Shown here in pieces: positions 15,596 through 31,877 of a DNA stretch of 32,000 bases (positions within the stretch are counted from its first letter, which is position 1; each line of letters opens with the position of its first letter). This DNA comes from Nostoc punctiforme PCC 73102 (GTDB lineage Bacteria > Cyanobacteriota > Cyanobacteriia > Cyanobacteriales > Nostocaceae). Where the stretch lies: NCBI RefSeq assembly GCF_000020025.1, contig NC_010628.1:1290001-1322000 (forward strand). Reading direction: 5' to 3'. A model generated the notes under the pieces. The model made no database searches. It saw only the letters and a list, made by a program, of their open reading frames with translations, and was not told where the DNA came from. The position numbers and the translations under genes are program-made.

Positions 15596-16795
15596 CTACC
15601 ACTGCCCTGAATTATCTTCTTGTTGCAAACCTATCAACTGTCGCCGCTTCCAAGCATAATGAAGAATATTAATTCCAAGTTCCTGGGCTGTACGAATAGT
15701 CAATCTGGGTAAACTTAAATCTCTATCCAACCCCCACGCAGTTGCTAAATCTCCAATTGCTAGAATAATTCCGCCACCGATTAACAATTTAATTTGCTGT
15801 TGATTAACCATTGGCAAGGCAGCAAATAAAAAAGGTTTTGTCCTTAAAGGATGACTCCGTTGCAATTCTTCTAAAGGTCTTAAAGGACTTTCTAACTGTT
15901 GTGCTAATGCTTGAGTACTCTCAATTAAAGCATTAGCATTTGCTGGCGCATCAACCAGAAGCACACCACCTAAATTTAAGTAATTTTTAAGAGATTCAAA
16001 TTCGAGACTATTTAAAGAAATTGCCTGTCCACCTGTCAAATAAAGTAGGTCATAATCTTGAATATTTTCACTTAAAGAAACCTGCCCTGGTTCATCAGCC
16101 CCTCGTAAACTGGGATATAGGGGTTCTACTGCTTGTAACAAATACGAAAGGCTGAAAAAATTACGCGCACATTCCGGATCGCTATGAGTTGCTTGCGCCA
16201 TACACACAAGTGCTTGAGGACGCATTTGTGCTTGACGGCGATAACGTAAATCAATATTGTTATATCCAGGAAAGAAGGCATCCGCCGGTTGGGTAATTTC
16301 AGTATGTCCTGGTTGCAGAAGTATTTGACATATTTCTATTTCTGAACTGGCTGGTATAGAGTTTCTTTGGTCAATTCGATAGGTTTCTTGAACAACATCT
16401 CTTTGCTGTCCACGCCGCAATTCATCAGGGTCTACATAGCTAACTACTAAGTAGATCATGAGTGGTTCAGAACTTACTACTTCTATATCAATGGGAAAGT
16501 CATAAGAAGTCGGTACAACAATTAGATTACCTGCTAAATCAATTGCAATACCAGGTTGAATTTGCACCCAACGCCCATCTCGATATCTAGCTTCTACTTG
16601 ACTTGGGGCTGTCACATCTCGAACGCCTAAACCACAGACAATTCCTGGTTGGTTTAAACTTTGATATTGAGCATTTTGCCGATTTCGATGATAATCATGG
16701 GCTGTGCGCCAGCGTTCTGCATTTATTAGTAACCCGTCTGCGGCTTGCAGGCGTTCCAAAGATTTGATTGGTGGGGGTGGGAAAGGATGGGACAT
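15596..16795 (-). CDS. Terminal gene of the tail-like operon: unknown N-terminal region + DUF4159-like C-terminal domain
   Basis: 399-aa ORF with ATG at 16795, co-directional with and 73 nt downstream of the gpI-like gene. The C-terminal stretch DYDLLYLTGGQAISLNSLEFESLKNYLNLGGVLLVDAP...SHPL...PFLF matches my recollection of the DUF4159 signature. The N-terminal half has no recognised family. Confidence 0.5.
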   Translation of the reverse strand: MSHPFPPPPIKSLERLQAADGLLINAERWRTAHDYHRNRQNAQYQSLNQPGIVCGLGVRDVTAPSQVEARYRDGRWVQIQPGIAIDLAGNLIVVPTSYDFPIDIEVVSSEPLMIYLVVSYVDPDELRRGQQRDVVQETYRIDQRNSIPASSEIEICQILLQPGHTEITQPADAFFPGYNNIDLRYRRQAQMRPQALVCMAQATHSDPECARNFFSLSYLLQAVEPLYPSLRGADEPGQVSLSENIQDYDLLYLTGGQAISLNSLEFESLKNYLNLGGVLLVDAPANANALIESTQALAQQLESPLRPLEELQRSHPLRTKPFLFAALPMVNQQQIKLLIGGGIILAIGDLATAWGLDRDLSLPRLTIRTAQELGINILHYAWKRRQLIGLQQEDNSGQW

Positions 16796-16800
16796 AATAA

Positions 16801-16819
16801 TTTTAGATTTTAGATTTTG
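16801..16819. repeat. Heptamer repeat TTTTAGA
   Basis: ttttaga ttttaga ttttg; reverse complement of the 13269-13289 unit. Confidence 0.55.
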
Positions 16820-16868
16820 TCTATTTTAGAAATTCTAAACAATATTACCTATTGGTGTATTAAATTAT

Positions 16869-17897
16869 TTAATTAGTGGGATTTTCAATAGATAATTCGT
16901 ATGTGCAGAAAGCAGGCTTTTCTTGTTCTATTATTCTTTGAATGAGTTGCTCGTTAATAATGCCACTAGAAATATTTGAACGCAAACGTACTATAAAATG
17001 ATATGGTTGCCCACCTGCTAAAACGGCATTTCCTAATTGGACATCTCCTATGATGAAACTTGGGCCAAAAGGTTCTGTAATACTGATATGTTTATCCGCT
17101 TCATTAGGTAAATCTTCGTCTAGCGGTAAACCAGTATAAAGATGTAAATAGAGACGCAATCCTTTACGAGTTCCGCGCCAGCGATAAAGTTCTACAGCCC
17201 GACGAATTAAACGCCGTTGTTGCTGGAGATCCCAAACTGAATCTACTTGCCAAGCAACCCAATGAGCCATAAAAGGTAGTAATGCTTGTGGCGCTGTCAA
17301 AGGATCGAGGTTTGCCCACATGACATTGTAACTATCAACTATTGGTTGAAAAGCTTGCTCAAATATCTTCATGAAGCGACCAATAAAGTCTACTTCTCGA
17401 TACAAAATTGGCAAGAACTCCATGTAGGCAGTGTAGGGACGAATATATAAATCGAAATACTCGCTTCTTTCGATTTGTTCGTTCTCTGTGCCTGGGTCTA
17501 TATGTAAAGTAACTAGACTACGAAAATTGAGAGTTAATTTGTTTTTTGTTCCAGGAGAAATTGCTTCTTGGTCTTCAAAAAATGTGTCGGGAATTGAGAA
17601 GTAGAGAACAGCATCCATTTGTCCACGAGGCGGTATTTCACTACCCTCTGTGCCAATTTGACACCACTGGGATGGAAAGTTTCCCTCAACGCTTAAGCTT
17701 ACCCGCAAAGGATGTTGTTCTAAGTTTTGTACTTGCACAATCATCTCGCTGGGATGCCCAGGATGCAAGAGTAAAGTACGTCCAGCCACATCCATATCCG
17801 CGTTTGCAAATCCTAAGCCCGCCACAGGTAAAGCTTCGGGTATTTGCATTGGCGTTAATTGAATACTTACAGCTGGACTAGAGCGACTTTGAACCAT
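16869..17897 (-). CDS. Baseplate wedge protein, P2 gpI / Afp12-like
   Basis: The track ORF starts at TTG 17939 inside a heptamer array; the first ATG is at 17897 (MVQSRSS). The C-terminal two thirds carry the gpI-like pattern FLPILYRE...FIGRFMKIFE...LDPLTAP...LPFMAHWV...RRAVELYRWRGTRKGL. Confidence 0.75.
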   Translation of the reverse strand: MVQSRSSPAVSIQLTPMQIPEALPVAGLGFANADMDVAGRTLLLHPGHPSEMIVQVQNLEQHPLRVSLSVEGNFPSQWCQIGTEGSEIPPRGQMDAVLYFSIPDTFFEDQEAISPGTKNKLTLNFRSLVTLHIDPGTENEQIERSEYFDLYIRPYTAYMEFLPILYREVDFIGRFMKIFEQAFQPIVDSYNVMWANLDPLTAPQALLPFMAHWVAWQVDSVWDLQQQRRLIRRAVELYRWRGTRKGLRLYLHLYTGLPLDEDLPNEADKHISITEPFGPSFIIGDVQLGNAVLAGGQPYHFIVRLRSNISSGIINEQLIQRIIEQEKPAFCTYELSIENPTN

Positions 17898-17903
17898 AGG
17901 ATT

Positions 17904-17994
17904 TGGGAATGGGGAATGGGGAATGGGAGAAATAACCAATAACCAATGACCAATGACAAATGACGAATGACAAATTACGAATTACGAATTATTT
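17904..17994. repeat. 13-unit heptamer (STRR-like) array held in one 7-nt register
   Basis: TGGGAAT GGGGAAT GGGGAAT GGGAGAA ATAACCA ATAACCA ATGACCA ATGACAA ATGACGA ATGACAA ATTACGA ATTACGA ATTATTT. Fills the spacer between the gpJ-like and gpI-like genes and supplies the gpJ-like stop codon. Confidence 0.85.
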
Positions 17995-20173
17995 GAATGT
18001 CGTGATTTGAACGTAGATTGGTATCAGCCCAAGAACATATTAAACCTTCCGAGCCTGGGTCAATTAATTGTTCGGGTGATGGTTGTCGTCGCCAATTTTC
18101 TCCTTGCTTGCGGATGGGAAACAACAGGACGGGGCCTAAATGACGCACGCCTGGGGTTTGTTGCAATAATGCGACAATATCTGATGTATAAACGGGTCGA
18201 CCAAATGGCCAACCTTTGCCGTCCATTCCTCCAGTTAATGGATTTAAATATTTATACAGTGATACCCTTAAATTCCGGCGAATTTCTTCTCTGGCAAAAG
18301 GATTATCATAAGCAGGTTCTAAAGCAATTTCTGTCTGTACAGAAACACCTACGTAATTCGGTTCTTGTAATTCTATTTGTACCCCTAGTAACCGTCTTTC
18401 ATCTAAGTAACTCATAATTTGCTCTTGCAGGGCATTACTAAGAGCAAAATTTTCTGGTGTCATGCCATTACCTTGCGCGATCGCATCTGTATTTGCATAA
18501 GGTACTACCAGTAAACTAACTATACCAGCTTGTCTACGAGAATTTGCTGCTAAACATCGGACGCGCGCGATCGCACCTGCACCCGCCTGTTGAGTCAAAA
18601 CTTCAAAATCTTCCGCAGTGACGGCGCGATCGCGCGTGCGGAGGATGCGGGGAGCCTTGATCACAGCCTGTTCCAGAGACTCGGCATCCGCACCATTGAT
18701 TGCTGGTACACGATTGACCACACTAGCAATGTATGGATACGCAGATTTCAAAAACTGAATTGCCCCAGTTTGCACATTGCCTTCCCTACCGCCACCTGTA
18801 CGATAAGCAACCATTTTAATCTCTGCACCACGGGGAGGAATTGCCCCATATTGGTGTTCCGACTGGTTATTTTCTAGAACTTGTACAGATGTGTTATCTA
18901 GCGATGGTTCTTGAATTCGCGATCGCATCTGGGTATGCTGTTTAAGTTGGCTAGGTTCCCGAATCAGCGGCCCAAACTGGATTGTCCCAGCGATCGAATC
19001 GATGGTGTAATGAAAGTTATGTGGCCCAGAATCAGCAAAATCTCTCACCTCAATCCACTTTTGAGGCAAACCACCACTGGGAGTAACTAAAATATACTCA
19101 TTTTCTCGGCGTTCTAAAATTGGTACTGTTTGTAACTGGAAACTCTGACCGGGCGTACCATCACTAATTCCCAATCGCTCATCTAAAATCAGCGTACTGT
19201 GACTAGCCCTAACAGTACCGCCAATTGACCGCGCTGCTAAACCAATAATTCTTGGTGGACGATTGTAACCAGTTTCATTGGCTTCTGTAGAAACAAAGCT
19301 ACAGCGCAACCAACGACCTCGATAAGAGGTAAAATTCGCCACAGGCCAAATTTGAGGTAAATGTAAACGTACCTCTGCACCTTGAGATGGGTTTCCACCC
19401 TGTTGGGCCATTTCATAAAAACTGAACCCACGAGTTTTATCATCTGACTCTTGCAATAAAACTGCTTGCCAATTTTCCCCATCCCAGGCTTCCCACTTGC
19501 GGGGTGGTTGATTAGGGTTAATACCAGCAGGTGTAGCCGCAGCTCCTTGGAAAATAATTTCTAAAACATTAGCATCTAAAGGAGCGTCAGAATTAATTGC
19601 TAAATAAAAGCAGTTACCAGGCTGGGGTTCCTCTTCAAATATCGGTTGTTCATTACCTGTCCAGAAACCGTTAGATTGACGAGTCCATGAAGTTGTAACT
19701 CTTTCGCGCAGAGATTGGGGAATATCTTCGGTAGTTTGGGCAGTTAAGAAGTGTTGGATGCGGGGATTGCCGATAATTAGAGGATAATCTGTGCTGAAGG
19801 TAATAGCTTCTGTAGTTTCAGTGCGAATAGTTGAGGCTTCTAATCCTGCGGGAATAGTGTAGGCTTCGGGTAATGCAGCGCTTAAATAAAAAGTTAATTC
19901 CGTGCGGGCTGGGGCGGGAGGCTGGAGACGAATACCCAGTAATTCTAGGAAAGCGACATAATTTTTGCGAGGTACTTGGTTAAATCTGAGCAACATTTGG
20001 TCAGTCAACCAAGCAAATAACTCAATTAGCGTAATTCCTGGGTCGCTGAGGTTGTGGTCAGTCCATTCGGGACAGTAGCGGGGAATACGCATAATACATT
20101 CTTCCACCAAATCATCGAAGGCGCGATCGTCTAAGTTGGAAGAAGGTAATTTCGGTAAAAAATCAAAGTTCAT
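17975..20173 (-). CDS. Baseplate protein, gpJ / T4 gp6 / Afp11-like
   Basis: 732-aa ORF with ATG at 20173. N-terminal pattern FDDLVEECIMRIPRYCPEWTDHNLSDPGITLIELFAW is typical of baseplate J-like proteins, as are the size and the position after gp25. Confidence 0.85.
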   Translation of the reverse strand: MNFDFLPKLPSSNLDDRAFDDLVEECIMRIPRYCPEWTDHNLSDPGITLIELFAWLTDQMLLRFNQVPRKNYVAFLELLGIRLQPPAPARTELTFYLSAALPEAYTIPAGLEASTIRTETTEAITFSTDYPLIIGNPRIQHFLTAQTTEDIPQSLRERVTTSWTRQSNGFWTGNEQPIFEEEPQPGNCFYLAINSDAPLDANVLEIIFQGAAATPAGINPNQPPRKWEAWDGENWQAVLLQESDDKTRGFSFYEMAQQGGNPSQGAEVRLHLPQIWPVANFTSYRGRWLRCSFVSTEANETGYNRPPRIIGLAARSIGGTVRASHSTLILDERLGISDGTPGQSFQLQTVPILERRENEYILVTPSGGLPQKWIEVRDFADSGPHNFHYTIDSIAGTIQFGPLIREPSQLKQHTQMRSRIQEPSLDNTSVQVLENNQSEHQYGAIPPRGAEIKMVAYRTGGGREGNVQTGAIQFLKSAYPYIASVVNRVPAINGADAESLEQAVIKAPRILRTRDRAVTAEDFEVLTQQAGAGAIARVRCLAANSRRQAGIVSLLVVPYANTDAIAQGNGMTPENFALSNALQEQIMSYLDERRLLGVQIELQEPNYVGVSVQTEIALEPAYDNPFAREEIRRNLRVSLYKYLNPLTGGMDGKGWPFGRPVYTSDIVALLQQTPGVRHLGPVLLFPIRKQGENWRRQPSPEQLIDPGSEGLICSWADTNLRSNHDIQIIRNS

Positions 20174-20234
20174 ACCAATTTAAAAAAGATTGTGACAGAT
20201 ACAAGCCTAGAAACCCAGAGAAAATTCAGCTTTC

Positions 20235-20269
20235 TTAATTTTTAATTTTCAATTTTTAATTTTTAATTC
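20235..20269. repeat. Heptamer repeat TTAATTT x5
   Basis: ttaattt ttaattt tcaattt ttaattt ttaattc, between the gp25-like and gpJ-like genes. Confidence 0.7.
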
Positions 20270-20272
20270 GTA

Positions 20273-20695
20273 TCACGATTCCTCCCCAGCTGAAACCAAA
20301 TAATAAGGATAAACAAAACTATAAATATCGGGGCCGTCTTTGAGTCGATAATTGATAATGATGTCCACTCTGCCACGCACAGGGTCAGGATCGGTGACAA
20401 CTTCATCGATAGTAATGCGTGGTTCCCAAACTTCTAAAGCTTCCAAGACATAAAGACGGATTCGCAGTAGGGTATCGCTATTTAAAGGTGCAAACGCCAG
20501 TTCCGACAAGCGCGAACCAAAGGTAGGTCGATAAACCCGCTCACCTACTCCCGTGCGAAGGATAATCCAAATAGATTCCTTAACTTTTTGATCTTCACGG
20601 CTAAGTTGTATCCCACCTTGCACACTTAAATGCAGTGGATAAGCCCAACCTGTTCCCAAATAGGCTCGTTCACGACCGTAAACCATATCTGGCAC
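20273..20695 (-). CDS. Baseplate wedge protein, GPW/gp25 (Afp9-like)
   Basis: 140-aa ORF with GTG at 20695 (alternative ATG at 20686). GTGWAYPL...ESIWIILRTGVGERVYRPTFGSRL...LEALEVWEPRI is the gp25-like signature. Confidence 0.9.
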   Translation of the reverse strand: MPDMVYGRERAYLGTGWAYPLHLSVQGGIQLSREDQKVKESIWIILRTGVGERVYRPTFGSRLSELAFAPLNSDTLLRIRLYVLEALEVWEPRITIDEVVTDPDPVRGRVDIIINYRLKDGPDIYSFVYPYYLVSAGEES

Positions 20696-20712
20696 TTAGA
20701 CAGTTGTACATG

Positions 20713-20730
20713 GATATCTTCAAAGATATC
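20713..20730. promoter_or_regulatory. Perfect palindrome just upstream of the gp25-like gene
   Basis: gatatctt-ca-aagatatc, 18 nt upstream of the GTG at 20695 on the minus strand. Confidence 0.35.
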
Positions 20731-20867
20731 GGCACAGAGGGTTTAAGCCTATTCGCCAAAGGTCGAGGATGAAGAAGCGGGGGGCAGGGGAGCAGAGGGG
20801 CAGGAGGCTTTTCCGATTTTTGCACAGATGGGGTAATCATAAGTGATTAACCGGACTTGATATGAGA

Positions 20868-20930
20868 TGGATGAACGGAGTTCTGAGGTGGATGAACGGA
20901 GTTCTGAGGTGGATGAACGGAGTTCTGATA
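20868..20930. repeat. Three tandem copies of a 21-bp unit
   Basis: tggatgaacggagttctgagg x2 are identical; the third copy ends ...ctgata. Lies 44 nt upstream of the plus-strand YdhR-like gene. Confidence 0.9.
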
Positions 20931-20973
20931 TTATGTCCGCATAATTACAGAAAAATTCAAGATAGGAGCAAAA

Positions 20974-21300
20974 ATGCCAGTGAGTAAAGTATTTCTATAC
21001 GCCGAGTATCAAGTGTCTATTCCTTTTAGTCAGATTGATTGGAAATCAGCTAATGTAGAAATGAAAAAGTTTCCCGGATTGAAATCCAAAACTTGGTTAA
21101 GTGCTTTGAACACCAACACTGTTGGTGGTTTTTATGAATTTGATTCTGTAGAGAATGCACAAAATTATATTGATGGCATTTTGATTCCATTCGCTAAACA
21201 AGTCAATGGAAATCTCACTGTAAAGCTTTTCGATGGTGATATAACCAAAGAAGCTAGCACAGGTATGAGTTCTCCTTTCTATCCGGCAGAATCTAAATGA
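20974..21300 (+). CDS. YdhR-like small alpha/beta-barrel (putative monooxygenase-family) protein, opposite strand to the tail operon
   Basis: 108-aa ORF with ATG at 20974 preceded by AGGAG. PGLKSKTWLSALNTNTVGGFYEFDSVENAQNYID and TVKLFDGD align by eye with E. coli YdhR (PGFLWKVW...AGGIYLF...ALAYLE, AKVFDVN). Confidence 0.55.
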   Translation: MPVSKVFLYAEYQVSIPFSQIDWKSANVEMKKFPGLKSKTWLSALNTNTVGGFYEFDSVENAQNYIDGILIPFAKQVNGNLTVKLFDGDITKEASTGMSSPFYPAESK

Positions 21301-21366
21301 TTGTCCATCCCACACGCCAATTTCAAAAAGCCAAACGAGCCAAGGATGGTGGTATCCTTCATCTGG

Positions 21367-21420
21367 GATAAGAGCTTTTATGCGCTGACCTGCGAGGAGA
21401 TTGCATAAACCGCTCTTATC
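21367..21420. other. Extended hairpin between convergent genes
   Basis: gataagagc (21367-21375) / gctcttatc (21412-21420) form a perfect 9-bp stem, with an inner ttatgc/gcataa pairing. No U-tract on either strand. Confidence 0.4.
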
Positions 21421-21524
21421 GCTATACGGTTCAATCTAAGGATGCGATCGATCGAGCGGATATGATATGAGACTGATGAGTAAAGTTGCAACTCTACCCT
21501 CCCCAATTTCCTCTACTTCTCCAA

Positions 21525-22022
21525 TCAGCCGCCAATCAAAACGGTAAAATCACCTTTGATAATTTTATTCGGTGGCCCTAATGCTTCTAAAACAGTGTCG
21601 CCCATGCGAGAGGCAGGTAGATTGTTAATCAGCACTGTCTGACTACCGTCAATCACAACCCCAGGGCCGTGAGGAGGGAGGGGTAAAGGTGTGGCGCAAT
21701 TATGAATATCAGCTCCTGCTGCTGCTGCTGCGATCGCACTACCCATAGTAGCTGCTGATGTTGCCTTTGTAGTTTGTTCGGTGGCTAAAGCAGCAGGTGC
21801 GCCTGGTGTACCTGCTGCCGCTAGGGTAGCAGCCTCAGCCACTTGGATAGCCGTATCTGAAATTTGTTTGGCGGATTGCAAAGCTGGTACTGCTGCTGCA
21901 AGCACGCCCCGCCACGCAGGTAAAGACCCAATCAACACATTGGGACTACCCGGCCCCCCTGTTAAGACTGGGGGTAATGGATGCGCCACATTATCAGTAA
22001 TTCTTGCTGCTGGTTTACCCAT
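21525..22022 (-). CDS. PAAR-domain spike-tip protein with Ala-rich central insertion (Afp10-like)
   Basis: ATG at 22022 preceded by AGGAGG at a 5-nt spacing (the track adds a GTG codon). GKPAARITDN motif, then ...HNCATPLPLPPHGPGVVIDGSQTVLINNLPASRMGD. An Ala-rich stretch of about 70 aa lies in between. Confidence 0.85.
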   Translation of the reverse strand: MGKPAARITDNVAHPLPPVLTGGPGSPNVLIGSLPAWRGVLAAAVPALQSAKQISDTAIQVAEAATLAAAGTPGAPAALATEQTTKATSAATMGSAIAAAAAGADIHNCATPLPLPPHGPGVVIDGSQTVLINNLPASRMGDTVLEALGPPNKIIKGDFTVLIGG

Positions 22023-22041
22023 CACAACCTCCTATTGTGTT

Positions 22042-22127
22042 AATTACGAATTACGTTAGCGTAGCGGTAGCGAGTCCGCGTTCGCTTTTAGCGTCTCGTA
22101 GAGAGCGTCATTACGAATTACGAATTA
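22042..22127. repeat. AATTACG heptamer repeats flanking a ~54-nt dispersed element
   Basis: aattacgaattacg (22042-22055), then ttagcgtagcggtagcgagtccgcgttcgcttttagcgtctcgtagagagcgtc, then attacgaattacgaatta (22110-22127). The core is shared with 13648-13691. Confidence 0.65.
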
Positions 22128-23858
22128 ATTAAGGCGAATCATCGCACCTTTAACTGTAATCACTCCGTTGGCTGTAATGTCTATATTGCCAGCCGCATCT
22201 AATGACATATTACCTGTTGATTTCACTGAAACAGATTTAGCCATGTCGTCCATTTTGATTTTATGACCGCCTTTGGTTTCAATCTCTATGCAGCTTTGAC
22301 TATCATTAAGATATATTTTATGACCGTCTTTAGTTTCTACGCGAATACCTGTTTTACTAGTTCCTTTATCCTCTTCGACAAACTGTAGAACATGACCTAC
22401 ACGAGTTTTAATGGTGCGTAATCTTACACCGCTTGCAACTGAATCACTTACCCTTTCCGGTGGTGCATCCTTGCCGTTCCATACCCCACCAATGACGTAG
22501 GGACGGTGGATATCGCCATGCTCAAAACCTACCAAAACTTCATCGTTTACCTCTGGTAAACAGTCGAAACCTCTGTTATTCCCTGCTCCCACAGCTACAA
22601 CTCTCGCCCAGTCACTTGTATGGTCTTCTGTAAGAGTGGGAAACTTGACTTTCACTCTGCCCATTTTCTCTGGGTCTTTATTATCAGTCACAATTCCGAC
22701 TAATAAAGTCTCAGATGGCTGTAGACGTTTTTCTGGGGATAGAGTTGTGAATAAGTTACCAGAACGGAGTCCCCGCACGCTGAAATCAGTTTCATAAACG
22801 CGCTGATTAAAGAAATGGCGGGTTTCTGTAACATAATACTTACCACTATAGCGATCGCCCATACCCTCAAGACTAATAACCCGTCCAGGACGAATCTCAG
22901 GATTCCCTTCTGCTTTGGCATCTGCGTAAACAAATTCTCCTCCTAGTTCATCACACAAAGCCTGAGCCATCGTATCTGCTTGTTTTTTGCTGGCAACAGG
23001 TTTATCTACAACAATCATTTTAGGAGACTTAAGATTAGAAAATGCATTACTCGTACTACTTCCTAGCTTATTACCTGTCTCAGTTGTTTGCTTCTCTTTG
23101 TTAGCTGTTCCACTAATCAATTTTTTCTGGGTATAGTCCCAGGCTCGTACTTCTACAGAACTTATCTGTTCAGCACTAGTAACACGAGTACTAAATTTAT
23201 TAATATCAACTAGCCATTTTAATGATAAAGCTCCCTGAGTTTTTGGTTTGCAAAAATTGAGTTTTTCTTCGGTAATAAATAACTCAAAACCAATGCGAGC
23301 AGCCCTTTCTCGCAAAAATTCCATATTAGTTTGATTTTCTTGAAAGACATACTTATGAACTTCACCAGTTTGCTCTATATTGCCAGGTTTTATACCTACT
23401 TCTTTAATTATTTTATTGACTATACCGCTATCAGTTTCATTTAGAAAAGAACGATTATAACGACCTCTATGCAGACGATGAGAAATATCATAACCGCGAA
23501 CAATTATATCAGCTTCAGATTTTTCATTAAAGTGAACTTCCATCGCTGTAATTTCGCCTTCAATAATGAATTCCCCTACCTCTTCTTGAAAATTATTATC
23601 TAGAGTAGTACTTGAAGTAAAACCTAACTTCACTTTTTTACCAATCTTAAACAACTGATCGTGTCGCCAAGCCTTATTTTCTGCTCGATCAGATGTGGGA
23701 ATATAGCTATTATGGATTACTAGCGTAAACATTGCTGGTAAATGAAGGCTTTCTTCTATTGTGATTTGCAACAAATCCTTCATTAATTCAGGCGAAGCAG
23801 GTTGTCCATCTACCTGTATTTTAGGTTCGCTTAAATAAAGGCTTTTTTTAGCAGGCAT
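22125..23858 (-). CDS. VgrG-like spike/hub protein (gpD-like N-domain + gp5 OB-fold + C-terminal beta-helix; Afp8-like)
   Basis: 577-aa ORF with ATG at 23858. VGIVTDNKDPEKMGRVKVKFP...DWARVV...LPEVNDEVLVGFEHGDIHRPYVIGGVWNG is the gp5/VgrG OB signature. The C-terminus has repetitive beta-strand units (ETKDGHKIYL / ETKGGHKIKM). Confidence 0.9.
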   Translation of the reverse strand: MPAKKSLYLSEPKIQVDGQPASPELMKDLLQITIEESLHLPAMFTLVIHNSYIPTSDRAENKAWRHDQLFKIGKKVKLGFTSSTTLDNNFQEEVGEFIIEGEITAMEVHFNEKSEADIIVRGYDISHRLHRGRYNRSFLNETDSGIVNKIIKEVGIKPGNIEQTGEVHKYVFQENQTNMEFLRERAARIGFELFITEEKLNFCKPKTQGALSLKWLVDINKFSTRVTSAEQISSVEVRAWDYTQKKLISGTANKEKQTTETGNKLGSSTSNAFSNLKSPKMIVVDKPVASKKQADTMAQALCDELGGEFVYADAKAEGNPEIRPGRVISLEGMGDRYSGKYYVTETRHFFNQRVYETDFSVRGLRSGNLFTTLSPEKRLQPSETLLVGIVTDNKDPEKMGRVKVKFPTLTEDHTSDWARVVAVGAGNNRGFDCLPEVNDEVLVGFEHGDIHRPYVIGGVWNGKDAPPERVSDSVASGVRLRTIKTRVGHVLQFVEEDKGTSKTGIRVETKDGHKIYLNDSQSCIEIETKGGHKIKMDDMAKSVSVKSTGNMSLDAAGNIDITANGVITVKGAMIRLN

Positions 23859-23938
23859 AACTATTATTTGATAATTTATAAAATGTTCAGAGCAGCCTTG
23901 AATGAAAAAGTAAATACTAATTTCTCACTTTATTTGTT

Positions 23939-24496
23939 TTACTTACTCAGTTTTTGACCCTTTTTATCTGTTGCACGAGCGTTGCCTTTAGAATCAGATT
24001 TACGTCCTCCAGGCAGGTTATTCTTATCTACTTCTTGCAAGGCTATATCTACCAGTGCCCTGACTGGTGTACCATCACTCAAAAACATATTTAAAGTGTA
24101 GGTTAAACTCGTGATTACACAATAAAAATACTCATCTCCCCAGGTAAATATATAAACAGGTGGTCGTTTGTCAGTTGCTTTAGTGATAGTTTCTACACCT
24201 TTCTTAATGTTATCTATGTACTTTTTTATCACCGACTCTTTCGTTTCATAAGTATCATAAAGTAACTGTTTAAGTGTAAATTTGTAAGGTTCAACGCCAG
24301 AAAAGTTTACTTTCGGAAGTAGAGTAGTTCCTCTATTGCCATCCTTACTTTCCCACTTAACAGTCCGAGCGAAACTAATATCTGTAGGATTAAACATTAA
24401 TTCAATATCTGGCGCTTCATTGTTATAAGCTACAAGCTTGGCTTTCTCAAGTTGGGGTTTAAGCTTTTGAATAACAATAATTGCTGGACTTGCCAT
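23939..24496 (-). CDS. CIS tube-initiator/baseplate-hub protein (Afp7/Pvc7-like N-domain, no LysM)
   Basis: 185-aa ORF with ATG at 24496 after AGGAGA. LEKAKLVAY...IELMFNPTDISFARTVKWES fits the 'LEKA.I ... F.FNP ... W' pattern I associate with Afp7-type tube-fold proteins. Sits between the tape-measure-like and spike genes. Confidence 0.6.
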   Translation of the reverse strand: MASPAIIVIQKLKPQLEKAKLVAYNNEAPDIELMFNPTDISFARTVKWESKDGNRGTTLLPKVNFSGVEPYKFTLKQLLYDTYETKESVIKKYIDNIKKGVETITKATDKRPPVYIFTWGDEYFYCVITSLTYTLNMFLSDGTPVRALVDIALQEVDKNNLPGGRKSDSKGNARATDKKGQKLSK

Positions 24497-24534
24497 TTGA
24501 ATATTTCTCCTAAAATTAATTATTTAATGAAAAT

Positions 24535-27500
24535 TTACCAAGGTAATCGACCTGAGTAACCACCATGACGCTCTCGTTCAATTTCTATCCGTTGTCGTAA
24601 TCTGTGATAAATTTCACGAGCTAGAGCTTCCAAATCAGCTGTATCATCTTTTTCATCTCCTGGAGAAGATGAGGATGCACTCTCTATGGTTTCAGTTATC
24701 GGTTGTATTTCTCTAGATATGTCGGGTGGAGTGACTTCTCCACCATTAGCAAAGCCTCTAGGTGAAGGAAGGTGTTTAGCAAAAACTTGTGGTGATTCGG
24801 AAACATGAGAAAATTCATAATTTTGACTGTTTGATTCCTCATCATTAAAATTAAAGCTAGAGAATTCATCATTATTTCCATTTAGTAAATCTTCCACACT
24901 TGACCATTGAGAAGGTGTATCTGACCATTGGGAAGGTGTGTGAGTGCTGGGATTTGCTTTTCGGAAAATCAGGGGAGGCGATGAGTATTGAGGTGAAGAT
25001 TCACCGACATCTATTGTTTCATTTTGAAGAGTATGAAGCTGGGGAGAATTGAGGATAGAAAGTTTCTGTTTGTTAATATTCAACCCCAAGGAAGAAGGAA
25101 TTAAAGAATTTGATATCTCAGGTGAATCAGTCTCAGCGCTTTTTAGCTGTAATGCAGTGTCTGGAAAAGAATCGACTTTAGTCGGAGTCTCTGGAGAAAT
25201 TGTTGCTTCCGGTTCTATGGGATTGGGTGTTTGTAAACTTGGAAGAATAATATCTTGCGGTGTTCCACCCGTGTTGATGTGATGTAGTAGGGGTAGATTT
25301 TTCTGTGCATCCCTGGTATTAATCACAAACTCCCCAGGCGTAAGCATTGCAGGTACTGTATCGGAGGGTGCTATTTGCTCGCGATTTTCAACACGTGAGT
25401 CTGTAACATGACCACCAGTAGCATAACCTTTAGGCGCGGGCAAATTTTCTGCGATCGCATTTTGTTCAACTTTAGGTGCTGTGCTTACCTCATCTTGTAG
25501 AGAAGTTGGGTTGTCTAGAATATCTGGATTATCCCAGGTATAAGCAAAGGTTGATATTTCAGGATTTTCTGATTCTACTGCTTGTTCATTATCAATAATT
25601 TCCCTAAAAATACTTGTTTTCTCAACAATTTCAGGCGATGTGGCGCTAACTACCAATGCTTCATCAATTTCAGGTGATGTGGCGGTAACTGTTGGTGTTT
25701 CAGTAATCTCAGGCGAATTGGTGCTAACTACCAATGCTTCATCAATTTCAGGCGATGTGGTGCTAACTACCAATGCTTCATCAATTTCAGGTGATGTGGC
25801 GGTAACTGTTGGTGTTTCAGTAATCTCAGGCGAATTGGTGCTAACTACCAATGCTTCATCAATTTCAGGTGATGTGGCGCTAATTGTTGGTGTTTCAGTA
25901 ATCTTAGGCGAATTGGTGCTAACTACCAATGCTTCATCAATTTCAGGTGATGTGGCGGTAACTGTTGGTGTTTCAGTAATCTCAGGCGAATTGGTGCTAA
26001 CTACCAATGCTTCATCAATTTCAGGGGAAATGGCGGTAACTGTTGGTGTTTCAGCAATTTCAGGCGAATTGGTGCTAACTACCAATGCTTCATCAATTTC
26101 AGGTGATGTGGCGCTAATTGTTGGTGTTTCAGTAATCTCAGGTGAATTGGTGCTAACTACCAATGCTTCATCAATTTCAGGTGATGTGGCGCTAACTGTT
26201 GGTGTTTCAGCAATTTCAGGTGATGTGGCGCTAATTGTTGGTGCTTCAGTAATCTCAGGTGCTGCTAAGATGGGTTGACTTTCTGTAAACTCGCTACTAA
26301 GATTTTGAACATTGCTATCACGTTGTAGTGAAGTCACATTTCCTGAGACATCTGAGACATTAAGCACCATCGCAGACTGTGATTCTGAAGTTACTAATTG
26401 TTCATCGCTATCAGGGTTGCTGAATAAACTAGGTGTGTGTTCAATAGCTGCTGAGGTAGGTGTTAACTGAACAGGCGTAATATCTGGAAACTCACTCGTA
26501 ACACTGGAATCAATTTCCTGACTTTTCACAGTATCTGTAAAACCTTTTTCCTGAAAGGACAGAGGCTTTAAATTCTCCCTATTATCTGGTAATAAAGGGG
26601 GGTGAGGGGTTAGATTTTGCGTTGCTTTTTTTACATTGTGTGAAAAGTCAGGATCAATTTCTTGTTGTACTGTAATAGGATTTTTTGCAACTGAAGACTC
26701 AGTATTAGGTGAAGTAAAATGCGTCTCTACGGTATTTTCATCATTCTCCAAAGCATGGAGTAAAGTAGGTGAATCATCAACCTCAGATGAAGTAGGTGCT
26801 GAAGATAAAGTTAAATAATTATCAGAGATAGCATTATTTGTAACAAAATTATTTGTGTTTTTTTCTGAATCAGAGACAGCATTATCTGTGACAAAATTAT
26901 TTTTGCTTTTTTCTGATATTAAGTCTGCTTCAATAGCTGTAATTTCCTCAAGTTTAGTATTAATATTTGGTGATTCTTCTTCCTGCAATAGAGAGTTTAA
27001 GGTTGGTAAAATCTCTTTTGCTTGGATTAAATTTCCTTTGATTAAATTTGTTCGACTTACGCTGCTTTTATTGTCAACTATAGAAGGGACTTGAACTGTT
27101 TGAATGTCTTGTTGTGGTGGCGTTTGGCTAACTGGTATACCTGAAAGGTTAAGTGATTCTGAGACTTCAGGGATTAGTTCTTCTTCACTATTTGTAAAGT
27201 TGCTATCCCCTATAAATATTTTTTCTGTATTTTTCTTAGAAGGAACTTCTATAGATGAAGTGTTGACTAATTCACTGGTTTCATCTTCTAATTCAATATT
27301 TTCTTCCGATGTTAAAGTATTTTCTGTTAAAGACAAATCTTTACTAGAGAAACTAGATATTAGCTCAGAAGTTTCTGACAGCTCATCGCTAGCATCGGTA
27401 GCAAAATTATCGAATAAAGTTGATTTGTCTTGAAAACTAGGTGAAGTATCTACGGTTGGGGTACTGACAGAACTACGATCCTTTGTAGTAGTGTCTAACA

Positions 27501-28137
27501 CAATATTTAGTTGTAAATCTTGTGTTTCGAAATTAGCCTCAATAGGCATAGATTCATCTGATATTAATAAGTTATCTTTATTAAGATTAATATTAGTTTT
27601 ATCAACAATTGGCTCAAAGTTTTTAGGACTAGATGATTTGATAGCTTTTTTAGTTCTAGATTTTGACTTTGGTTCTTTTTCTAGTGGTTTCTTAGATTTA
27701 TTTGTTTTTTTTGGCTTAGATTTAGTTTTTATATTTACTTCTTGGGATGTGCCATTACTCGTATTTGTCTCGTTGGGAGTTGGCATTATCTTTGGAATAC
27801 TATTTTTTACTGATTCATTGCTATTTTCTAGTTCAGCTATTGAATCAGAAGCATCAAACTCAATCAACGGAAATTCGCCAAATTCACTATTTATATCCTG
27901 AGTATCCCAACTATCCCAACCTATTAATGGTTCAATCGATGGTTCATACTGACGAGACAAGAAAAATTTAGAGGATTTGACTAATGGTGGTTTAGTTTGG
28001 ATTGTACTAATAAAATTACTTCGTGAATGCAAAGAATGAGATTCTTTTCTCAATATTATTCCCTGAGAATTATATAAAGATGATATAACCCCAAGGGGAT
28101 GAATATTGTTTCCTAGTGAAGATTGAATAATTTGCAT
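24535..28137 (-). CDS. Tape-measure-like protein, 1200 aa, mostly low-complexity
   Basis: ATG at 28137. Located between the tube and tube-initiator genes, the usual tape-measure position in CIS loci. Two copies of a G(Y/F)A(T/N)GG.VT motif; the first is followed by VPAMLTPGEFVIN (lambda-H-type tape-measure C-terminal motif). The sequence is S/T/E/N/P-rich. Confidence 0.6.
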   Translation of the reverse strand: MQIIQSSLGNNIHPLGVISSLYNSQGIILRKESHSLHSRSNFISTIQTKPPLVKSSKFFLSRQYEPSIEPLIGWDSWDTQDINSEFGEFPLIEFDASDSIAELENSNESVKNSIPKIMPTPNETNTSNGTSQEVNIKTKSKPKKTNKSKKPLEKEPKSKSRTKKAIKSSSPKNFEPIVDKTNINLNKDNLLISDESMPIEANFETQDLQLNIVLDTTTKDRSSVSTPTVDTSPSFQDKSTLFDNFATDASDELSETSELISSFSSKDLSLTENTLTSEENIELEDETSELVNTSSIEVPSKKNTEKIFIGDSNFTNSEEELIPEVSESLNLSGIPVSQTPPQQDIQTVQVPSIVDNKSSVSRTNLIKGNLIQAKEILPTLNSLLQEEESPNINTKLEEITAIEADLISEKSKNNFVTDNAVSDSEKNTNNFVTNNAISDNYLTLSSAPTSSEVDDSPTLLHALENDENTVETHFTSPNTESSVAKNPITVQQEIDPDFSHNVKKATQNLTPHPPLLPDNRENLKPLSFQEKGFTDTVKSQEIDSSVTSEFPDITPVQLTPTSAAIEHTPSLFSNPDSDEQLVTSESQSAMVLNVSDVSGNVTSLQRDSNVQNLSSEFTESQPILAAPEITEAPTISATSPEIAETPTVSATSPEIDEALVVSTNSPEITETPTISATSPEIDEALVVSTNSPEIAETPTVTAISPEIDEALVVSTNSPEITETPTVTATSPEIDEALVVSTNSPKITETPTISATSPEIDEALVVSTNSPEITETPTVTATSPEIDEALVVSTTSPEIDEALVVSTNSPEITETPTVTATSPEIDEALVVSATSPEIVEKTSIFREIIDNEQAVESENPEISTFAYTWDNPDILDNPTSLQDEVSTAPKVEQNAIAENLPAPKGYATGGHVTDSRVENREQIAPSDTVPAMLTPGEFVINTRDAQKNLPLLHHINTGGTPQDIILPSLQTPNPIEPEATISPETPTKVDSFPDTALQLKSAETDSPEISNSLIPSSLGLNINKQKLSILNSPQLHTLQNETIDVGESSPQYSSPPLIFRKANPSTHTPSQWSDTPSQWSSVEDLLNGNNDEFSSFNFNDEESNSQNYEFSHVSESPQVFAKHLPSPRGFANGGEVTPPDISREIQPITETIESASSSSPGDEKDDTADLEALAREIYHRLRQRIEIERERHGGYSGRLPW
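25627..26268 (-). repeat. In-frame 39-bp tandem array (~16-17 units; alternating 13-aa units SPEIDEALVVSTN / SPEITETPTV(T/S)AT)
   Basis: Near-identical 39/78-nt periodicity is visible on both strands. The plus-strand 212-aa ORF 25640-26278 is its antisense shadow. Confidence 0.9.
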
Positions 28138-28160
28138 AGTGATAGTTTAAGAGTAGCCAA

Positions 28161-28685
28161 TTAGCTAGAAACGAAATATCCTGATTTTTGATTTCGTTGT
28201 ACAGAAGAGCCTCCTCCTGTAGACCTTGCGACTTGTAAACCTTCATAAGCTAAAGTTAATTCTTCAATCGCAACTGCCTTCCCATCTGCTTGGAGTGCAG
28301 GAGTTTTCCAGGTTATAGGAATAGCACCAATCAAAGTCCAACTCATCATCGTTTCACCGGCTTGATTAAAAATCAGAATATTGACATTGCGTCGAGATGT
28401 TTTCTTTTTTTCATCAAAAACTGCATTCATCCAGTTCCAAAAACCTGGATGATCGGTAAATCCTCGTTTAAGAGTTATGTCTGCAAATTCTGTATGACCT
28501 AAATAAATTCTTTGCTGGTCGTTAACACCACCTTCCTGAAAAACATTTTTCTTAATTTGAACACTTAATCCTGAACATTCAGCGAAAGATGCAGCAATAG
28601 AACTGTCTATCTCTACGTAAAACCGATTAGTAGTGACATAATTTAATTCGTGAGTAATGTTGCCATTGTTAGCGCCTGTAGCCAT
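28161..28685 (-). CDS. Tail tube protein (T4 gp19 / Afp1-like)
   Basis: ATG at 28685 overlaps the upstream stop (TAATG); the track uses GTG at 28694. NRFYVEIDSSIAASFAECSGLSVQ...GHTEFADITLKRGF...FWNWMN is the conserved phage-tail-region/tube signature. Confidence 0.9.
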   Translation of the reverse strand: MATGANNGNITHELNYVTTNRFYVEIDSSIAASFAECSGLSVQIKKNVFQEGGVNDQQRIYLGHTEFADITLKRGFTDHPGFWNWMNAVFDEKKKTSRRNVNILIFNQAGETMMSWTLIGAIPITWKTPALQADGKAVAIEELTLAYEGLQVARSTGGGSSVQRNQKSGYFVSS

Positions 28686-28924
28686 TACAACCACCTTTGA
28701 GAATCATAACTACCTATTCTTTCGCGCTGCGATCGCAAATCTTCTAGCATAAGTTTATATACGTGTTCTGTAAGCTGGTTCATCAGCCGTGAATCGTTGA
28801 GATATTTACTTGCCGTTTTAGCCGCCTTAGTAGCATCAGATGCCGCCGAAACCCCGGCGTATCCAGCAGTACCGCCAACATCTCCATCGAACGTGAAAAA
28901 AGTTTGTTGCTGTTTTGAGTCCAT
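28685..28924 (-). CDS. First gene of the tail operon: 79-aa protein sharing a C-terminal motif with the tape-measure-like protein
   Basis: ATG at 28924 with GGGAGAG upstream. The C-terminus LTEHVYKLMLEDLRSQRERIGSY parallels LAREIYHRLRQRIEIERERHGGY at the tape-measure C-terminus. Translationally coupled to the tube gene. Confidence 0.5.
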   Translation of the reverse strand: MDSKQQQTFFTFDGDVGGTAGYAGVSAASDATKAAKTASKYLNDSRLMNQLTEHVYKLMLEDLRSQRERIGSYDSQRWL

Positions 28925-29115: not shown

Positions 29116-31395
29116 ATGAGAGAACACATCAGCCGGCAGAAAAAAACTACTACAGGCTTCTCAATTCCATCCCTAAAACACCCGACACCCGGCTTTGGTT
29201 TGGAGTCGTCGGCAATTTCACGCCAAGCGGTTCCTGAAATACAACCACTCCATCAACCAGTTACTCACGATATCAGTCGCATACCACTGCGTAGTCCTCA
29301 AGCAAAACTCTCAATTAGCCAGCCTGGAGACATTTACGAACAGGAAGCTGATAGCGTCGCACAGCAGGTAATGCAAAGAATGGCGCAGCCTGTAAATCGT
29401 CAGCCTATCCAACGAGAAATATTGTCAGAGGAAGAAGAATTGCAGATGAAACCTCTGGCAAGTTCCATCACGCCTTTGGTGCAACGAGAAGCATTGCTAG
29501 AGGATGAGGAAGAAGAATTACAGATGAAACCTGTGGACAATAGCACATTGCAACGAGAAGCATTGCCAGAGGATGAGGAAGAATTACAGATGAAATCCCT
29601 CGACAGTAGCACGCTGCAACGAGAAGCATTGCCAGAGGATGAGGAAGAATTGCAGATGAAACCGATGGTGCAGCGTCAGGCTGAGGCTGGAATGGCTGCT
29701 GCACCTGACTTGGAAGCGTCCATTAGCCAAGCAAGGGGTGGTGGACAGGCGATCGCAGACAACATCCGCGAACCGATGGAACAGGCGTTTGGCGCAGATT
29801 TCAGTGGGGTGAAGGTTCACACGGATGGTAAATCTGACCAGTTAAATCAGTCAATTCAGGCGCGGGCTTTCACAACGGGACAAGATGTGTTCTTTCGCCA
29901 GGGGGAATATAATCCTGGGAGTCGAGGGGGTCAGGAGTTGTTGGCGCATGAGTTGACCCATGTAGTGCAGCAGAACAATAACACTGTGAATCGGCAGTTA
30001 ATTCAAAGAGCTGTTGGATTTGAATTTGAATTTGGAGAATGGAAATCCTACAAAAATGATGACAAGAAAAGTCGATTAGCTAAAGGTGAAGAAATTATTT
30101 CGGGAACGGGATATAAAATTGAAGGAGAAGATACATACGATAGTAAAGTATCTGCTGTTGAAGTCGTCACAAAGCCATACACAACAAGAAAAGAAGCCTT
30201 AGAATCTGTCACCGAAGCTCAAGAAAAAATGCAGTCAATGTCAAAAGATGGAGAGGACATAGGACATCTGGCAAATAAGTATGGTGGTAAGGCAAGTGTT
30301 TTTATTGAGCCGCATGGAAAAGCTGGTAAAGTCCAAGCCTCAGCTGCTATTCCCCTTGATAAGCTTGCGAATTTGTATTCAATTCAAGCAGGTGGTGATG
30401 GGAAAGGTCTAGGAGCTTCAGTTACAACTAAACTACAAAATGAAGATTTAAAAAACAAGTACTTGGATGGTAAAGATGCCAGTCCTGAACTGATTGGTCT
30501 AGTGACACTTGTCTTAGATTATATCGAACAAGGATCGGGTAAAGGAAATCTCAGTTATCCAAAATCCACGTTCAAACTCATGGCAAGAACTTCATTTGAT
30601 AAAATGTTGACTCTTGTTCCAGAACACTCATTCTTTAGTAATAAGAGCAATATAGATAAATGGGCTGGTTTAGTATTGGAGATTGCCGCTAGTCTTGGGA
30701 TGAGCAAAAAACAAGAAGTAGTAGAGTCTAAAAAATCTGTAATGACAGATGTTGAGGTCAAAAAAGAACGGAAGTTTAAATGGATGACTCGAATATTTGG
30801 AAAGAGAAAAGTAACCGAAAAAGTCATGAAAGAGTTTATAATGAAACAACCAACTTTTGTGAAAAAAACCGCAGAAGAGTTAGCGGAAGAACCAATTATA
30901 AATCAAGTTCTTATGGGTATGGAATTATTGCCCGAAGACTCAGATAAAGATAAGCAATCTTACAAGCTAAAAATTAAACGAATTGAATGGCTTAAAGGGA
31001 TGCTAAAAGAAGATTTAATCAGTAAGGCAACAGATAAGCGTTTTGAGGGGATGGGATCATACGGAGTCTCAACAGATGTCCAGGTGATACCAGAAGACAT
31101 TGAAGTAGTAACAGAAAAAGCCGTCTCCAAAGCAGTGGATGAATTAGAGAATGAAGACGAAGCTCAGTCTAAATCGGTTTCTAAGGAAACAAAGGAAGCA
31201 CCTATTTTTGAGTTGCGTGGCATGAAGGATATGTTCGCTATTCAACAAGATATTAATCTAACTGATTGGACTGAGAAAGTAAAAGCAGTGTTTGAAGTGA
31301 TTGAAGAAGCGAATAAAGGAGAATCGTTTGCACCTGGCGGAAAACCGAATATTCCAAAGGATGTAGACAAGCCTGATATTTGGGAGAAAGTTTGA
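29116..31395 (+). CDS. DUF4157 (zincin-like HExxH) domain protein with acidic repeat leader and unknown ~460-aa C-terminal module; candidate CIS cargo/effector
   Basis: 759-aa ORF with ATG at 29116 after GGAGA. MEQAFGADFSGVKVHTDGKSDQLNQSIQARAFTTGQDVFF...ELLAHELTHVVQQ is the DUF4157 signature (HELTH at 29947-29961). Residues ~300-759 have no recognised family. Confidence 0.85.
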   Translation: MREHISRQKKTTTGFSIPSLKHPTPGFGLESSAISRQAVPEIQPLHQPVTHDISRIPLRSPQAKLSISQPGDIYEQEADSVAQQVMQRMAQPVNRQPIQREILSEEEELQMKPLASSITPLVQREALLEDEEEELQMKPVDNSTLQREALPEDEEELQMKSLDSSTLQREALPEDEEELQMKPMVQRQAEAGMAAAPDLEASISQARGGGQAIADNIREPMEQAFGADFSGVKVHTDGKSDQLNQSIQARAFTTGQDVFFRQGEYNPGSRGGQELLAHELTHVVQQNNNTVNRQLIQRAVGFEFEFGEWKSYKNDDKKSRLAKGEEIISGTGYKIEGEDTYDSKVSAVEVVTKPYTTRKEALESVTEAQEKMQSMSKDGEDIGHLANKYGGKASVFIEPHGKAGKVQASAAIPLDKLANLYSIQAGGDGKGLGASVTTKLQNEDLKNKYLDGKDASPELIGLVTLVLDYIEQGSGKGNLSYPKSTFKLMARTSFDKMLTLVPEHSFFSNKSNIDKWAGLVLEIAASLGMSKKQEVVESKKSVMTDVEVKKERKFKWMTRIFGKRKVTEKVMKEFIMKQPTFVKKTAEELAEEPIINQVLMGMELLPEDSDKDKQSYKLKIKRIEWLKGMLKEDLISKATDKRFEGMGSYGVSTDVQVIPEDIEVVTEKAVSKAVDELENEDEAQSKSVSKETKEAPIFELRGMKDMFAIQQDINLTDWTEKVKAVFEVIEEANKGESFAPGGKPNIPKDVDKPDIWEKV
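29410..29672 (+). repeat. In-frame tandem repeat (periods 72/69/66 nt; about four units, the last truncated) encoding QRE(A/I)L.E(D/E)EEELQMK(P/S)
   Basis: The unit caacgagaagcattgccagaggatgaggaagaattacagatgaaa starts at 29410, 29482, 29551 and 29617. Confidence 0.85.
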
Positions 31396-31541: not shown

Positions 31542-31877
31542 TTAAAAAACTCCATAGCCCGTATATTCCCGCATTTCAGGAGATTGAAATCCAAGAACAA
31601 TATTATCTTTTGGAACCCCTCGCTCTACAAGTTCTTGAGCCACTCTCATTTCCGTCATATTCTGCTCAATCGAAATTTTTCCCTGTTTAATATCCAAATG
31701 TAAAACACAACCATAGACTCGCCGATGACCATCCCATCCCACATTGATAACCATGTAATGGTCTTGTTTTGTATCAAAAACAGTGTAACAATCAATCTGA
31801 CCATTGGCTATTGGGATAGCAGCATAAGCCGTCAACAACGACTGAATGATATGGCGATAAGATTCTAGGGTATCCAT
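31542..31877 (-). CDS. xisI: XisI-family protein
   Basis: 111-aa ORF. YRHIIQSLLTAYA...CYTVFDTKQDHYMVINVGWDGHRRVYGCVLHLDIKQGKI.IEQN.TE is the XisI signature. The start overlaps the upstream xisH-like stop. Confidence 0.9.
   Translation of the reverse strand: MDTLESYRHIIQSLLTAYAAIPIANGQIDCYTVFDTKQDHYMVINVGWDGHRRVYGCVLHLDIKQGKISIEQNMTEMRVAQELVERGVPKDNIVLGFQSPEMREYTGYGVF

Follow-up and report, generated by a model that had tools for sequence, protein, structure and literature searches.

A DUF4157-headed putative contractile injection system effector of Nostoc punctiforme with an unannotated, enzyme-like C-terminal domain family

What is the domain that closes a protein encoded back to back with a contractile injection system (CIS) operon, and would that protein be cargo of the machine? 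The locus that raises this question lies in Nostoc punctiforme PCC 73102 (NC_010628.1, positions 1,290,001-1,322,000, forward strand). This whole stretch of 32,000 nucleotides (nt) is called the window, and coordinates refer to it unless another locus is named. The gene at 29116-31395 starts 191 bp from a divergent, minus-strand operon for the tube, spike and baseplate of a CIS. Its product of 759 amino acids (aa) has three parts: an acidic leader, a DUF4157 domain and a C-terminal module of 464 aa. The whole protein would be a typical DUF4157-headed CIS effector, of a known kind, and the new part is the C-terminal domain. The reading that we favour, with some reserve, is that of a CIS cargo combining a loading leader, DUF4157 and a toxic enzyme domain, the last belonging, as a very divergent branch, to the glutamine-synthetase-like carboxylate-amine ligase fold (Amidoligase_2/GCS2).

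Among predicted CIS effectors, proteins headed by DUF4157 form the largest pool, and 983 of 1130 of them have no annotated toxin domain (Danov et al. 2024, PMC11297309). Abundant as cyanobacterial CISs are in nature, their effectors have yet to be characterised. One such domain is now delimited, with a confident fold model, candidate catalytic residues and a testable hypothesis of an Mg-ATP-dependent, ligase-type activity. In addition, a conserved QR junction in front of it provides a concrete handle on DUF4157 function.

Layout of the protein and family of its C-terminal module

The product of the open reading frame (ORF) is 100% identical to the NCBI entry "DUF4157 domain-containing protein" of Nostoc punctiforme (label P0001). 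A GGAG located about 7 nt 5' of the ATG supports the start codon. The features of the gene are as follows; a module residue number plus 295 gives the number in the full-length protein.

29116-31395, plus strand: whole gene, a DUF4157-headed putative CIS effector of 759 aa (ORF call)
29116-29754, plus strand: N-terminal leader, aa 1-213, the proposed loading sequence (composition)
29371-30006, plus strand: [LIVM]-Q-R copies at aa 86, 98, 122, 145, 167, 185 and 296
29410-29664, plus strand: four acidic repeats QRE[AI]L.E(D/E)nELQMK[PS], aa 99-183 (regular-expression search)
29755-29979, plus strand: DUF4157/eCIS_core domain, aa 214-288 (Pfam PF13699)
29995-30006, plus strand: head/module junction LIQR, aa 294-297 (near-invariant Q and R, immediately ahead of the fold)
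30001-31392, plus strand: C-terminal module, aa 296-759, an unannotated, enzyme-like domain family (family search, AlphaFold2)
30001-30696, plus strand: conserved N-terminal core of the module, residues 1-232, with E8, E10, K28, E54, Q112, K188 and R196 (distant relatives match profile positions 1-230)
30706-30864, plus strand: variable K-rich insert, a predicted long beta-hairpin, module residues 236-288 (DSSP, alignment)
31126-31179, plus strand: variable acidic loop, module residues 376-393 (predicted local distance difference test, pLDDT, <50; variable in the alignment)
31201-31221, plus strand: PIFELRG strand with the near-invariant E404 and R406, "ExR" (motif scan, alignment)

The leader is acidic (net charge -16), rich in repeats and low in hydrophobicity. 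In the DNA, its repeats appear as a 66-nt tandem repeat (2.7 copies, 88% matches, 29480-29663; Tandem Repeats Finder). The match to PF13699, the Pfam family in which DUF4157 is now called eCIS_core, is strong (E = 1.3e-32; 112.2 bits versus a gathering cut-off of 22). It contains a zinc-binding-type HExxH motif, HELTH (aa 278-282, 29947-29961), and the longer pattern HExxHxxQQ is kept in homologues. The module is rich in K and E (K+R 16%, D+E 17%), and carries VGFEFEF at aa 300 (30013), VFIEPHG at aa 395 (30298) and PIFELRG at aa 696 (31201). Its K-rich insert (K+R 32%; DSSP strands E236-255 and E269-288) is absent or variable in homologues. A previous sequence-only reading of the window had described this ORF, its three-part layout, the four acidic repeats and the motif coordinates, and all of them proved exact.

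The same reading had called the C-terminal part unassigned, and our searches agree. The module had no match in Pfam, NCBIfam, PHROGs or PADLOC, none in phage genomes, and 0 matches at E ≤ 10 in single-sequence and profile searches of the PDB sequences. In 33 close and 85 distant members, Pfam recognised eCIS_core only, together with Peptidase_M91 across that domain's HExxH region; no member had a match on the module. A word-indexed search with the module recovered 35 clusters, mostly DUF4157 fusions, where a cluster is a representative at 50% identity. The exhaustive search with a hidden Markov model (HMM), the trimmed profile A2, recovered 676 clusters at E ≤ 1e-3, 275 of them at E ≤ 1e-10. 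As far as these searches tell, the module is a large family spread across many phyla and annotated in none of the libraries searched. DUF4157 was present in 84 of 168 sampled members, always N-terminal to the module, and the other 84 have just a leader of 25-125 aa before it.

In alignments of 101-121 sequences that are about 25% identical, the invariant residues are G6, E8, E54, K188 and D338, and at least 90% conservation is found for Q2, R3, E10, K28, Q112, S/T114, R196, T197, F199, W330, L331, G352, E404 and R406. The "ExE...H...ExR" pattern of the sequence-only reading therefore stands in its two outer parts, which are family features, but not in its His: that of VFIEPHG varies in the family (PHG/PKG/PGx/PNG). 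Conserved, mostly charged residues that alternate along predicted strands (ExE, QxS, ExR) would be the typical signature of a catalytic sheet.

Some members differ in context or in length. Three distant matches, named "hypothetical protein", sit on Bacteroidota megaplasmids, and the one copy inspected had no CIS genes within 20 kb. In P0033 (locus L033, 10001-12289), a compact module is followed by an extension of 304 aa that has no Pfam match and holds "NNCLIRSI", reminiscent of the catalytic motifs of Cys proteases (OTU-like). By this arrangement, P0033, whose gene closes a CIS operon, may be an effector with two enzymes.

Possible kinship with carboxylate-amine ligases

With the family alignment as input, AlphaFold2 confidently modelled both the window module (pLDDT 91.2; predicted template-modelling score, pTM, 0.86) and the module of P0033, the most compact homologue (pLDDT 92.3, pTM 0.90). 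Among their weak structural matches, the carboxylate-amine ligase fold is the only family that recurs, and it does so in two independent libraries. In a Foldseek search of the PDB with the first model, the carboxylate-amine ligase YbdK (1tt4) ranked 2 (E = 0.1). In BFVD, a library of predicted viral structures, phage amidoligases or COOH-NH2 ligases took ranks 1, 2, 4, 5 and 11 (E = 2.8e-3, 1.4e-2, 0.13, 0.36 and 0.91, respectively; Foldseek probability of 0.82 for rank 2 and 0.87 for rank 3). The first of these, gp9 of Salinivibrio phage CW02, is a genuine member of Amidoligase_2 (PF12224).

Profiles were also compared using hhalign. A2 matched the Amidoligase_2 profile with E = 0.05, a value given with no control. 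A profile of 48 full modules scored 24.0, where single-reversed controls scored 12 and 1 of 50 pooled column shuffles was as high. The core profile of 121 sequences (effective number of sequences, Neff, 6.3) scored 26.7 (E = 0.0034, probability 9.6%); its null was 12.5 ± 2.9, and 1 shuffle in 60 did as well. The control was an accepted same-fold pair, Amidoligase_2 and GCS2, which scored 27.1 (E = 0.0074, null 15.0 ± 2.7). The module scores about as well as the control pair, and the score of the latter shows that hhalign works near its limit at such divergence.

The core alignment spans residues 3-78 of the module and 15-78 of the amidoligases. It pairs VGFEFE with VGIEIE and SxIExVTxP with sxEYVLxkP, so that G6, E8 and E10 correspond to amidoligase G18, E20 and E22, and E54, V56 and P59 to E54, V56 and P60. 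Like E54, V56 and P59 of the module are invariant. Relaxed alignments are collinear through a Trp-containing helix. The two families have in common an N-terminal GxExE strand and an acidic strand that ends in ExVxxP and is followed by a helix. A possible third likeness is a C-terminal F-E-x-R strand with a conserved Trp helix behind it (PIFELRG...W paired with SLEFRAMR...W); only a suboptimal alignment shows it, and the optimal one pairs MARTS instead. We consider it more probable than not that the module is distantly related to the glutamine-synthetase-like ligase fold.

The sequence-only reading had guessed at an amidoligase from motif spacing. The BFVD ranks and the score of the core profile are on the side of that guess, but no strict threshold was passed (hhalign probabilities ≤10%, in addition to the shuffles that scored as high) and several results weigh against it. 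In the PDB, neither model had a Foldseek match at E ≤ 0.001 (best E of 0.04 and 0.44, TM-score <0.2), and YbdK was not among the 50 matches listed for the second model. Relaxed alignments of the module with GCS2/YbdK (PF04107; 1tt4) pair GFEFE with GIELE and SAIEVVT with ESMLEIAT, but the scores against GCS2 (13-16, E = 0.38-0.49) are at null level, as are those against the single YbdK sequence and the YbdK family profile. The HxHxN motif (H92, H94, N96) and the CGxxRxGNLFCL block, both invariant in Amidoligase_2, have no counterpart in the module, which shows xIxP...KMQAS at the position of HxHxN and no Cys/Asn block. The Amidoligase_2 HMM had no match at E ≤ 10 in the 33 close members and none at E ≤ 0.01 in the 85 distant ones. 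HMMER cross-searches between module and amidoligases reached 9.5 bits at best, and Pfam gave no match to GCS2/YbdK (PF04107). Judged by these searches, the module is outside both PF12224 and PF04107.

These results give substance to another explanation, in which the protein is still a CIS effector but the module is a new fold, unrelated to glutamine-synthetase-like ligases, with GxExE and ExR strands that arose by convergence. Its chemistry would then be open (e.g., a nuclease, a phosphatase, a nucleotide-modifying enzyme or a CYTH-like protein). The two confident models without a significant PDB neighbour, the lack of a link at HMMER level, the missing HxH and the fact that all hhalign and Foldseek signals are sub-threshold argue for it. 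So do the differences from Amidoligase_2: the module is about twice as large (approximately 450 aa versus 250 aa), contains additional helical stretches as well as inserts, and has invariant residues of its own (K28, K188, R196 and D338). It is also fused to a secretion head, whereas Amidoligase_2 is found in metabolite or peptide-modification operons. On the other hand, a new fold would have to account for the recurrence of a single family among the weak structural matches, for collinear motifs and for a score as high as the accepted same-fold pair obtained. That the PDB was silent is moreover to be expected, since no solved structure of Amidoligase_2 can be detected by sequence search. We regard a new fold as possible, though rather unlikely. 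A relation to CYTH/triphosphate-tunnel enzymes, considered for the ExExK-like first strand, was dropped, its sole hint being 3sy3 at E = 3.1.

Under the favoured ligase-fold reading, a proposal on chemistry can be made from what is generally known of the metal and ATP ligands of the glutamine-synthetase fold. The module would bind Mg-ATP on the face of its beta-sheet and could modify a carboxylate or amine of a small molecule or a protein in the recipient.

Cargo of the machine or protein of the producer

DUF4157 is a recognised N-terminal marker of toxins and effectors of extracellular CISs (eCISs) (PMC8213781; PMC11297309). In AlgoCIS, Cgo1 and Cgo2 consist of a leader, DUF4157 and a variable C-terminal domain, were experimentally found loaded in the tube lumen, and require their disordered N-terminal domain for loading (bioRxiv 10.64898/2026.05.27.728243). 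The putative effectors Alr3311 and Alr3312 of Anabaena have the same succession of leader, DUF4157 and C-terminal domain (PMC8894136). The Nostoc protein resembles all of these in its three-part layout, in the position of its gene beside CIS genes and in the constant heads and variable tails of its paralogues.

The variation of tails is seen in three loci where two to four DUF4157 proteins are encoded in tandem (L003, 6963-8252; L002, 2733-11338; L011, 9446-17069). The heads of these paralogues are 63-78% identical and their tails differ, being unrelated in L002 and L003 and mostly either about 25% identical or unrelated in L011. The sister protein in L003, with a head 77% identical, has a tail that resembles the CdiA-CT RNase A domain but narrowly misses the Pfam cut-off (PF18431, E = 3e-5). 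Pfam recognises nothing in two large tails of L002 (869 and 590 aa). Such near-constant heads with unrelated tails support modular tail swapping, which the sequence-only reading had suggested on other grounds. Near-identical N-terminal trafficking heads and unrelated C-terminal tails are also the mark of polymorphic toxins (CdiA-CT, Rhs and effectors of type VI secretion systems). Here, the head differs in consisting of a leader and DUF4157 instead of a filamentous haemagglutinin, Rhs or PAAR domain, and no adjacent conserved immunity gene was detected.

Composition had been used as a further argument for a swapped-in module, described as AT-rich and free of highly iterated palindrome 1 (HIP1) sites. 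The step in GC content is real: GC is 0.496 in the N-terminal part and 0.373 in the module, and GC at third codon positions (GC3) is 0.47 and 0.284, respectively. However, GC3 is 0.23-0.35 in the neighbouring CIS genes, so the module fits its surroundings and the head is the outlier; the argument for a foreign module was rejected. The lower overall GC of the module was seen in 10 of 10 homologues examined, with mixed directions for GC3, and fits an effect of amino-acid composition. The absence of HIP1 sites was rejected as not significant (0.69 sites/kb in the window; 0.96 expected per 1.4 kb; P(0) = 0.38). A scan for promoters and terminators was uninformative, with fewer sites than in shuffles.

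Structural CIS genes were found within 10 kb in 8 of the 31 homologue loci (iterated HMMs), and an Afp15-like AAA+ ATPase alone in 5 further loci. The Anabaena orthologue (79% identical) directly follows an Afp15-like ATPase, with no structural genes nearby, and the Trichocoleus homologue is part of a block that comprises two DUF4157 genes, an ATPase gene and baseplate genes. P0024 and P0033 have no DUF4157, yet they are encoded at the ends of CIS operons beside stand-alone DUF4157 genes. The linkage to CISs is strong but not obligatory, as for other secretion-system effectors.

We infer that the protein is the payload of the adjacent tail-like machine, and a mechanism of loading and delivery can be proposed because of the analogy with Cgo1/2. 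The putatively disordered leader (aa 1-213) would be the loading sequence, used by an Afp15-type AAA+ ATPase to thread the protein into the tube lumen. The HExxH domain of DUF4157 would act as an accessory or processing domain. The C-terminal enzyme domain of 464 aa would carry the toxic or other activity and be released or refolded inside the target, and it may act on a recipient after ejection or, as in Anabaena, after lysis of the producer.

A processing role of DUF4157 might leave a trace in the [LIVM]-Q-R motif. In the heads of 131 family members, it was observed 286 times versus 26.8 expected, a 10.7-fold enrichment (about 5.8-fold without the junction copy), and 81 of the 131 heads contain at least 2 copies. 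It is not enriched in the bodies of the modules (16 observed versus 27.4 expected). At the junction itself (LIQR|AVGFEFEF), Q is present in 123 and R in 122 of 126 sequences, including members without DUF4157. The motif could be a candidate site of recognition or cleavage for the HExxH domain. A bolder proposal is that of a new class of injected effectors, ATP-dependent enzymes of the amidoligase type that covalently modify proteins or metabolites of the target cell or make a toxic adduct from them, in which the DUF4157 peptidase cuts an [IV]-Q-R junction, in cis or in trans, and thereby releases or activates the toxin. We hold this combination to be doubtful; if true, it would give DUF4157 its long-sought function. 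No ligase-type CIS effector and no link between amidoligases and CISs was found in the literature searched.

The payload reading, which the sequence-only reading had also put forward, has on its side the architecture, the DUF4157 marker, the operon at 191 bp and the 8 of 31 linked loci, but a number of observations weigh against it. No gene for a sheath, a terminator (DUF4255) or an AAA+ ATPase was found among the window ORFs of at least 100 aa, so that the machine is present here only in part; the remaining genes could be located in another region of the 8.2-Mb genome. Structural tail genes are missing within 10 kb of many homologues, the closest orthologues among them, and P0022, P0005 and one Bacteroidota plasmid copy are orphans. 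No conserved downstream gene fit for immunity was found among the family loci. In AlgoCIS, DUF4157 is dispensable for loading (bioRxiv 10.64898/2026.05.27.728243). Unlike the genes of eCIS toxins, this one is encoded divergently at the 5' end of the operon and not at the 3' end, sheath and ATPase genes are missing from the local cluster, and the C-terminal domain is none of the toxin domains described (ADP-ribosyltransferase, deaminase, nuclease, transglutaminase and others).

The absence of a sheath gene, of tail genes within 10-20 kb of the closest orthologues and many relatives, and of a conserved immunity gene could be understood if the protein was never injected. It would then be a cytoplasmic or regulatory protein of the producer, such as a DUF4157 peptidase-linked enzyme in CIS assembly, lysis or programmed cell death, and only co-regulated with the operon. 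The CISs of Anabaena, which are anchored to thylakoids and tied to cell death rather than to classic secretion (PMC8894136), are consistent with this possibility. We nevertheless find it improbable: the architecture is identical to that of proven lumen cargos, the module co-occurs with the Afp15-like loading ATPase, and tandem arrays with swappable tails, one of them resembling a CdiA-type RNase, are typical of polymorphic toxins. Least probable is a non-enzymatic structural or adaptor domain (lumen plug, spike-binding or receptor-binding), for which the long variable inserts and the lack of an enzymatic family match could be invoked, since the module fills the slot used by toxin domains and its invariant residues at about 25% identity, which alternate on strands, consist almost entirely of charged or polar ones (E, K, R, D, Q), as is typical of a catalytic sheet and not of a binding surface.

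Neighbouring genes in the window

The divergent operon and its continuation, part of a CIS cluster at 15596-28924 (minus strand), comprise the following genes.

28685-28924, minus strand: ORF of 79 aa, at the operon head
28161-28694, minus strand: CIS tube protein (gp19-type, Phage_T4_gp19; Pfam E = 5.7e-40), the second operon gene
24535-28137, minus strand: repeat-rich protein of 1200 aa in the tape-measure position (gene order: tube, 1200-aa protein, gpU-like, hub)
23939-24496, minus strand: CIS_tube/gpU-like (Pfam)
22125-23858, minus strand: VgrG-like spike (Pfam)
21525-22025, minus strand: PAAR (Pfam)
20273-20695, minus strand: gp25 (Pfam)
17975-20173, minus strand: Baseplate_J (Pfam)
16869-17939, minus strand: Tail_P2_I (Pfam)

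A P2-like gene order would put a sheath gene where the divergent DUF4157 gene now sits. The 1200-aa protein has no credible Pfam match and, going by gene order, would act as the tape measure. It is rich in Ser, Thr, Glu and Pro, and a 78/117-nt tandem array at 25622-26234 encodes about 20 copies of SPEI(D/T/A)E(A/T)(L/P)(V/T)V(S/T)... within it. It shares a C-terminal motif, ..Y..L......RER.G.Y.....W, with the 79-aa ORF (24538-24648 and 28685-28795, respectively, both on the minus strand). The local alignment of the two ends scored 43 versus 20.3 ± 4.2 for shuffles, 0 of 2000 being as high, and the common motif may be a docking helix.

Just downstream of the effector gene, and convergent with it, lies a gene for XisI (31542-31877; PF08869, E = 2.4e-44). 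XisH and XisI have been reported as "cloud" domains of eCISs (Danov et al., PMC11297309). The 146-nt spacer between the stop codons of the two genes holds three HIP1 sites (31412, 31465 and 31524). At the far end of the CIS cluster, a gene for a MazF/PemK-type toxin (14905-15264, plus strand; PF02452, E = 1.4e-24) adjoins a DUF4159 gene (15596-16795). An ORF of 108 aa (20974-21300, plus strand) with a match to YdhR-like mono-oxygenases (E = 5e-7) lies on the opposite strand between gp25 and PAAR. Farther away, genes for a Ser/Thr kinase-TPR protein, a PP2C phosphatase and a vWA-domain protein stand in a row at 3959-7718 (minus strand), in what looks like an unrelated signalling cassette.

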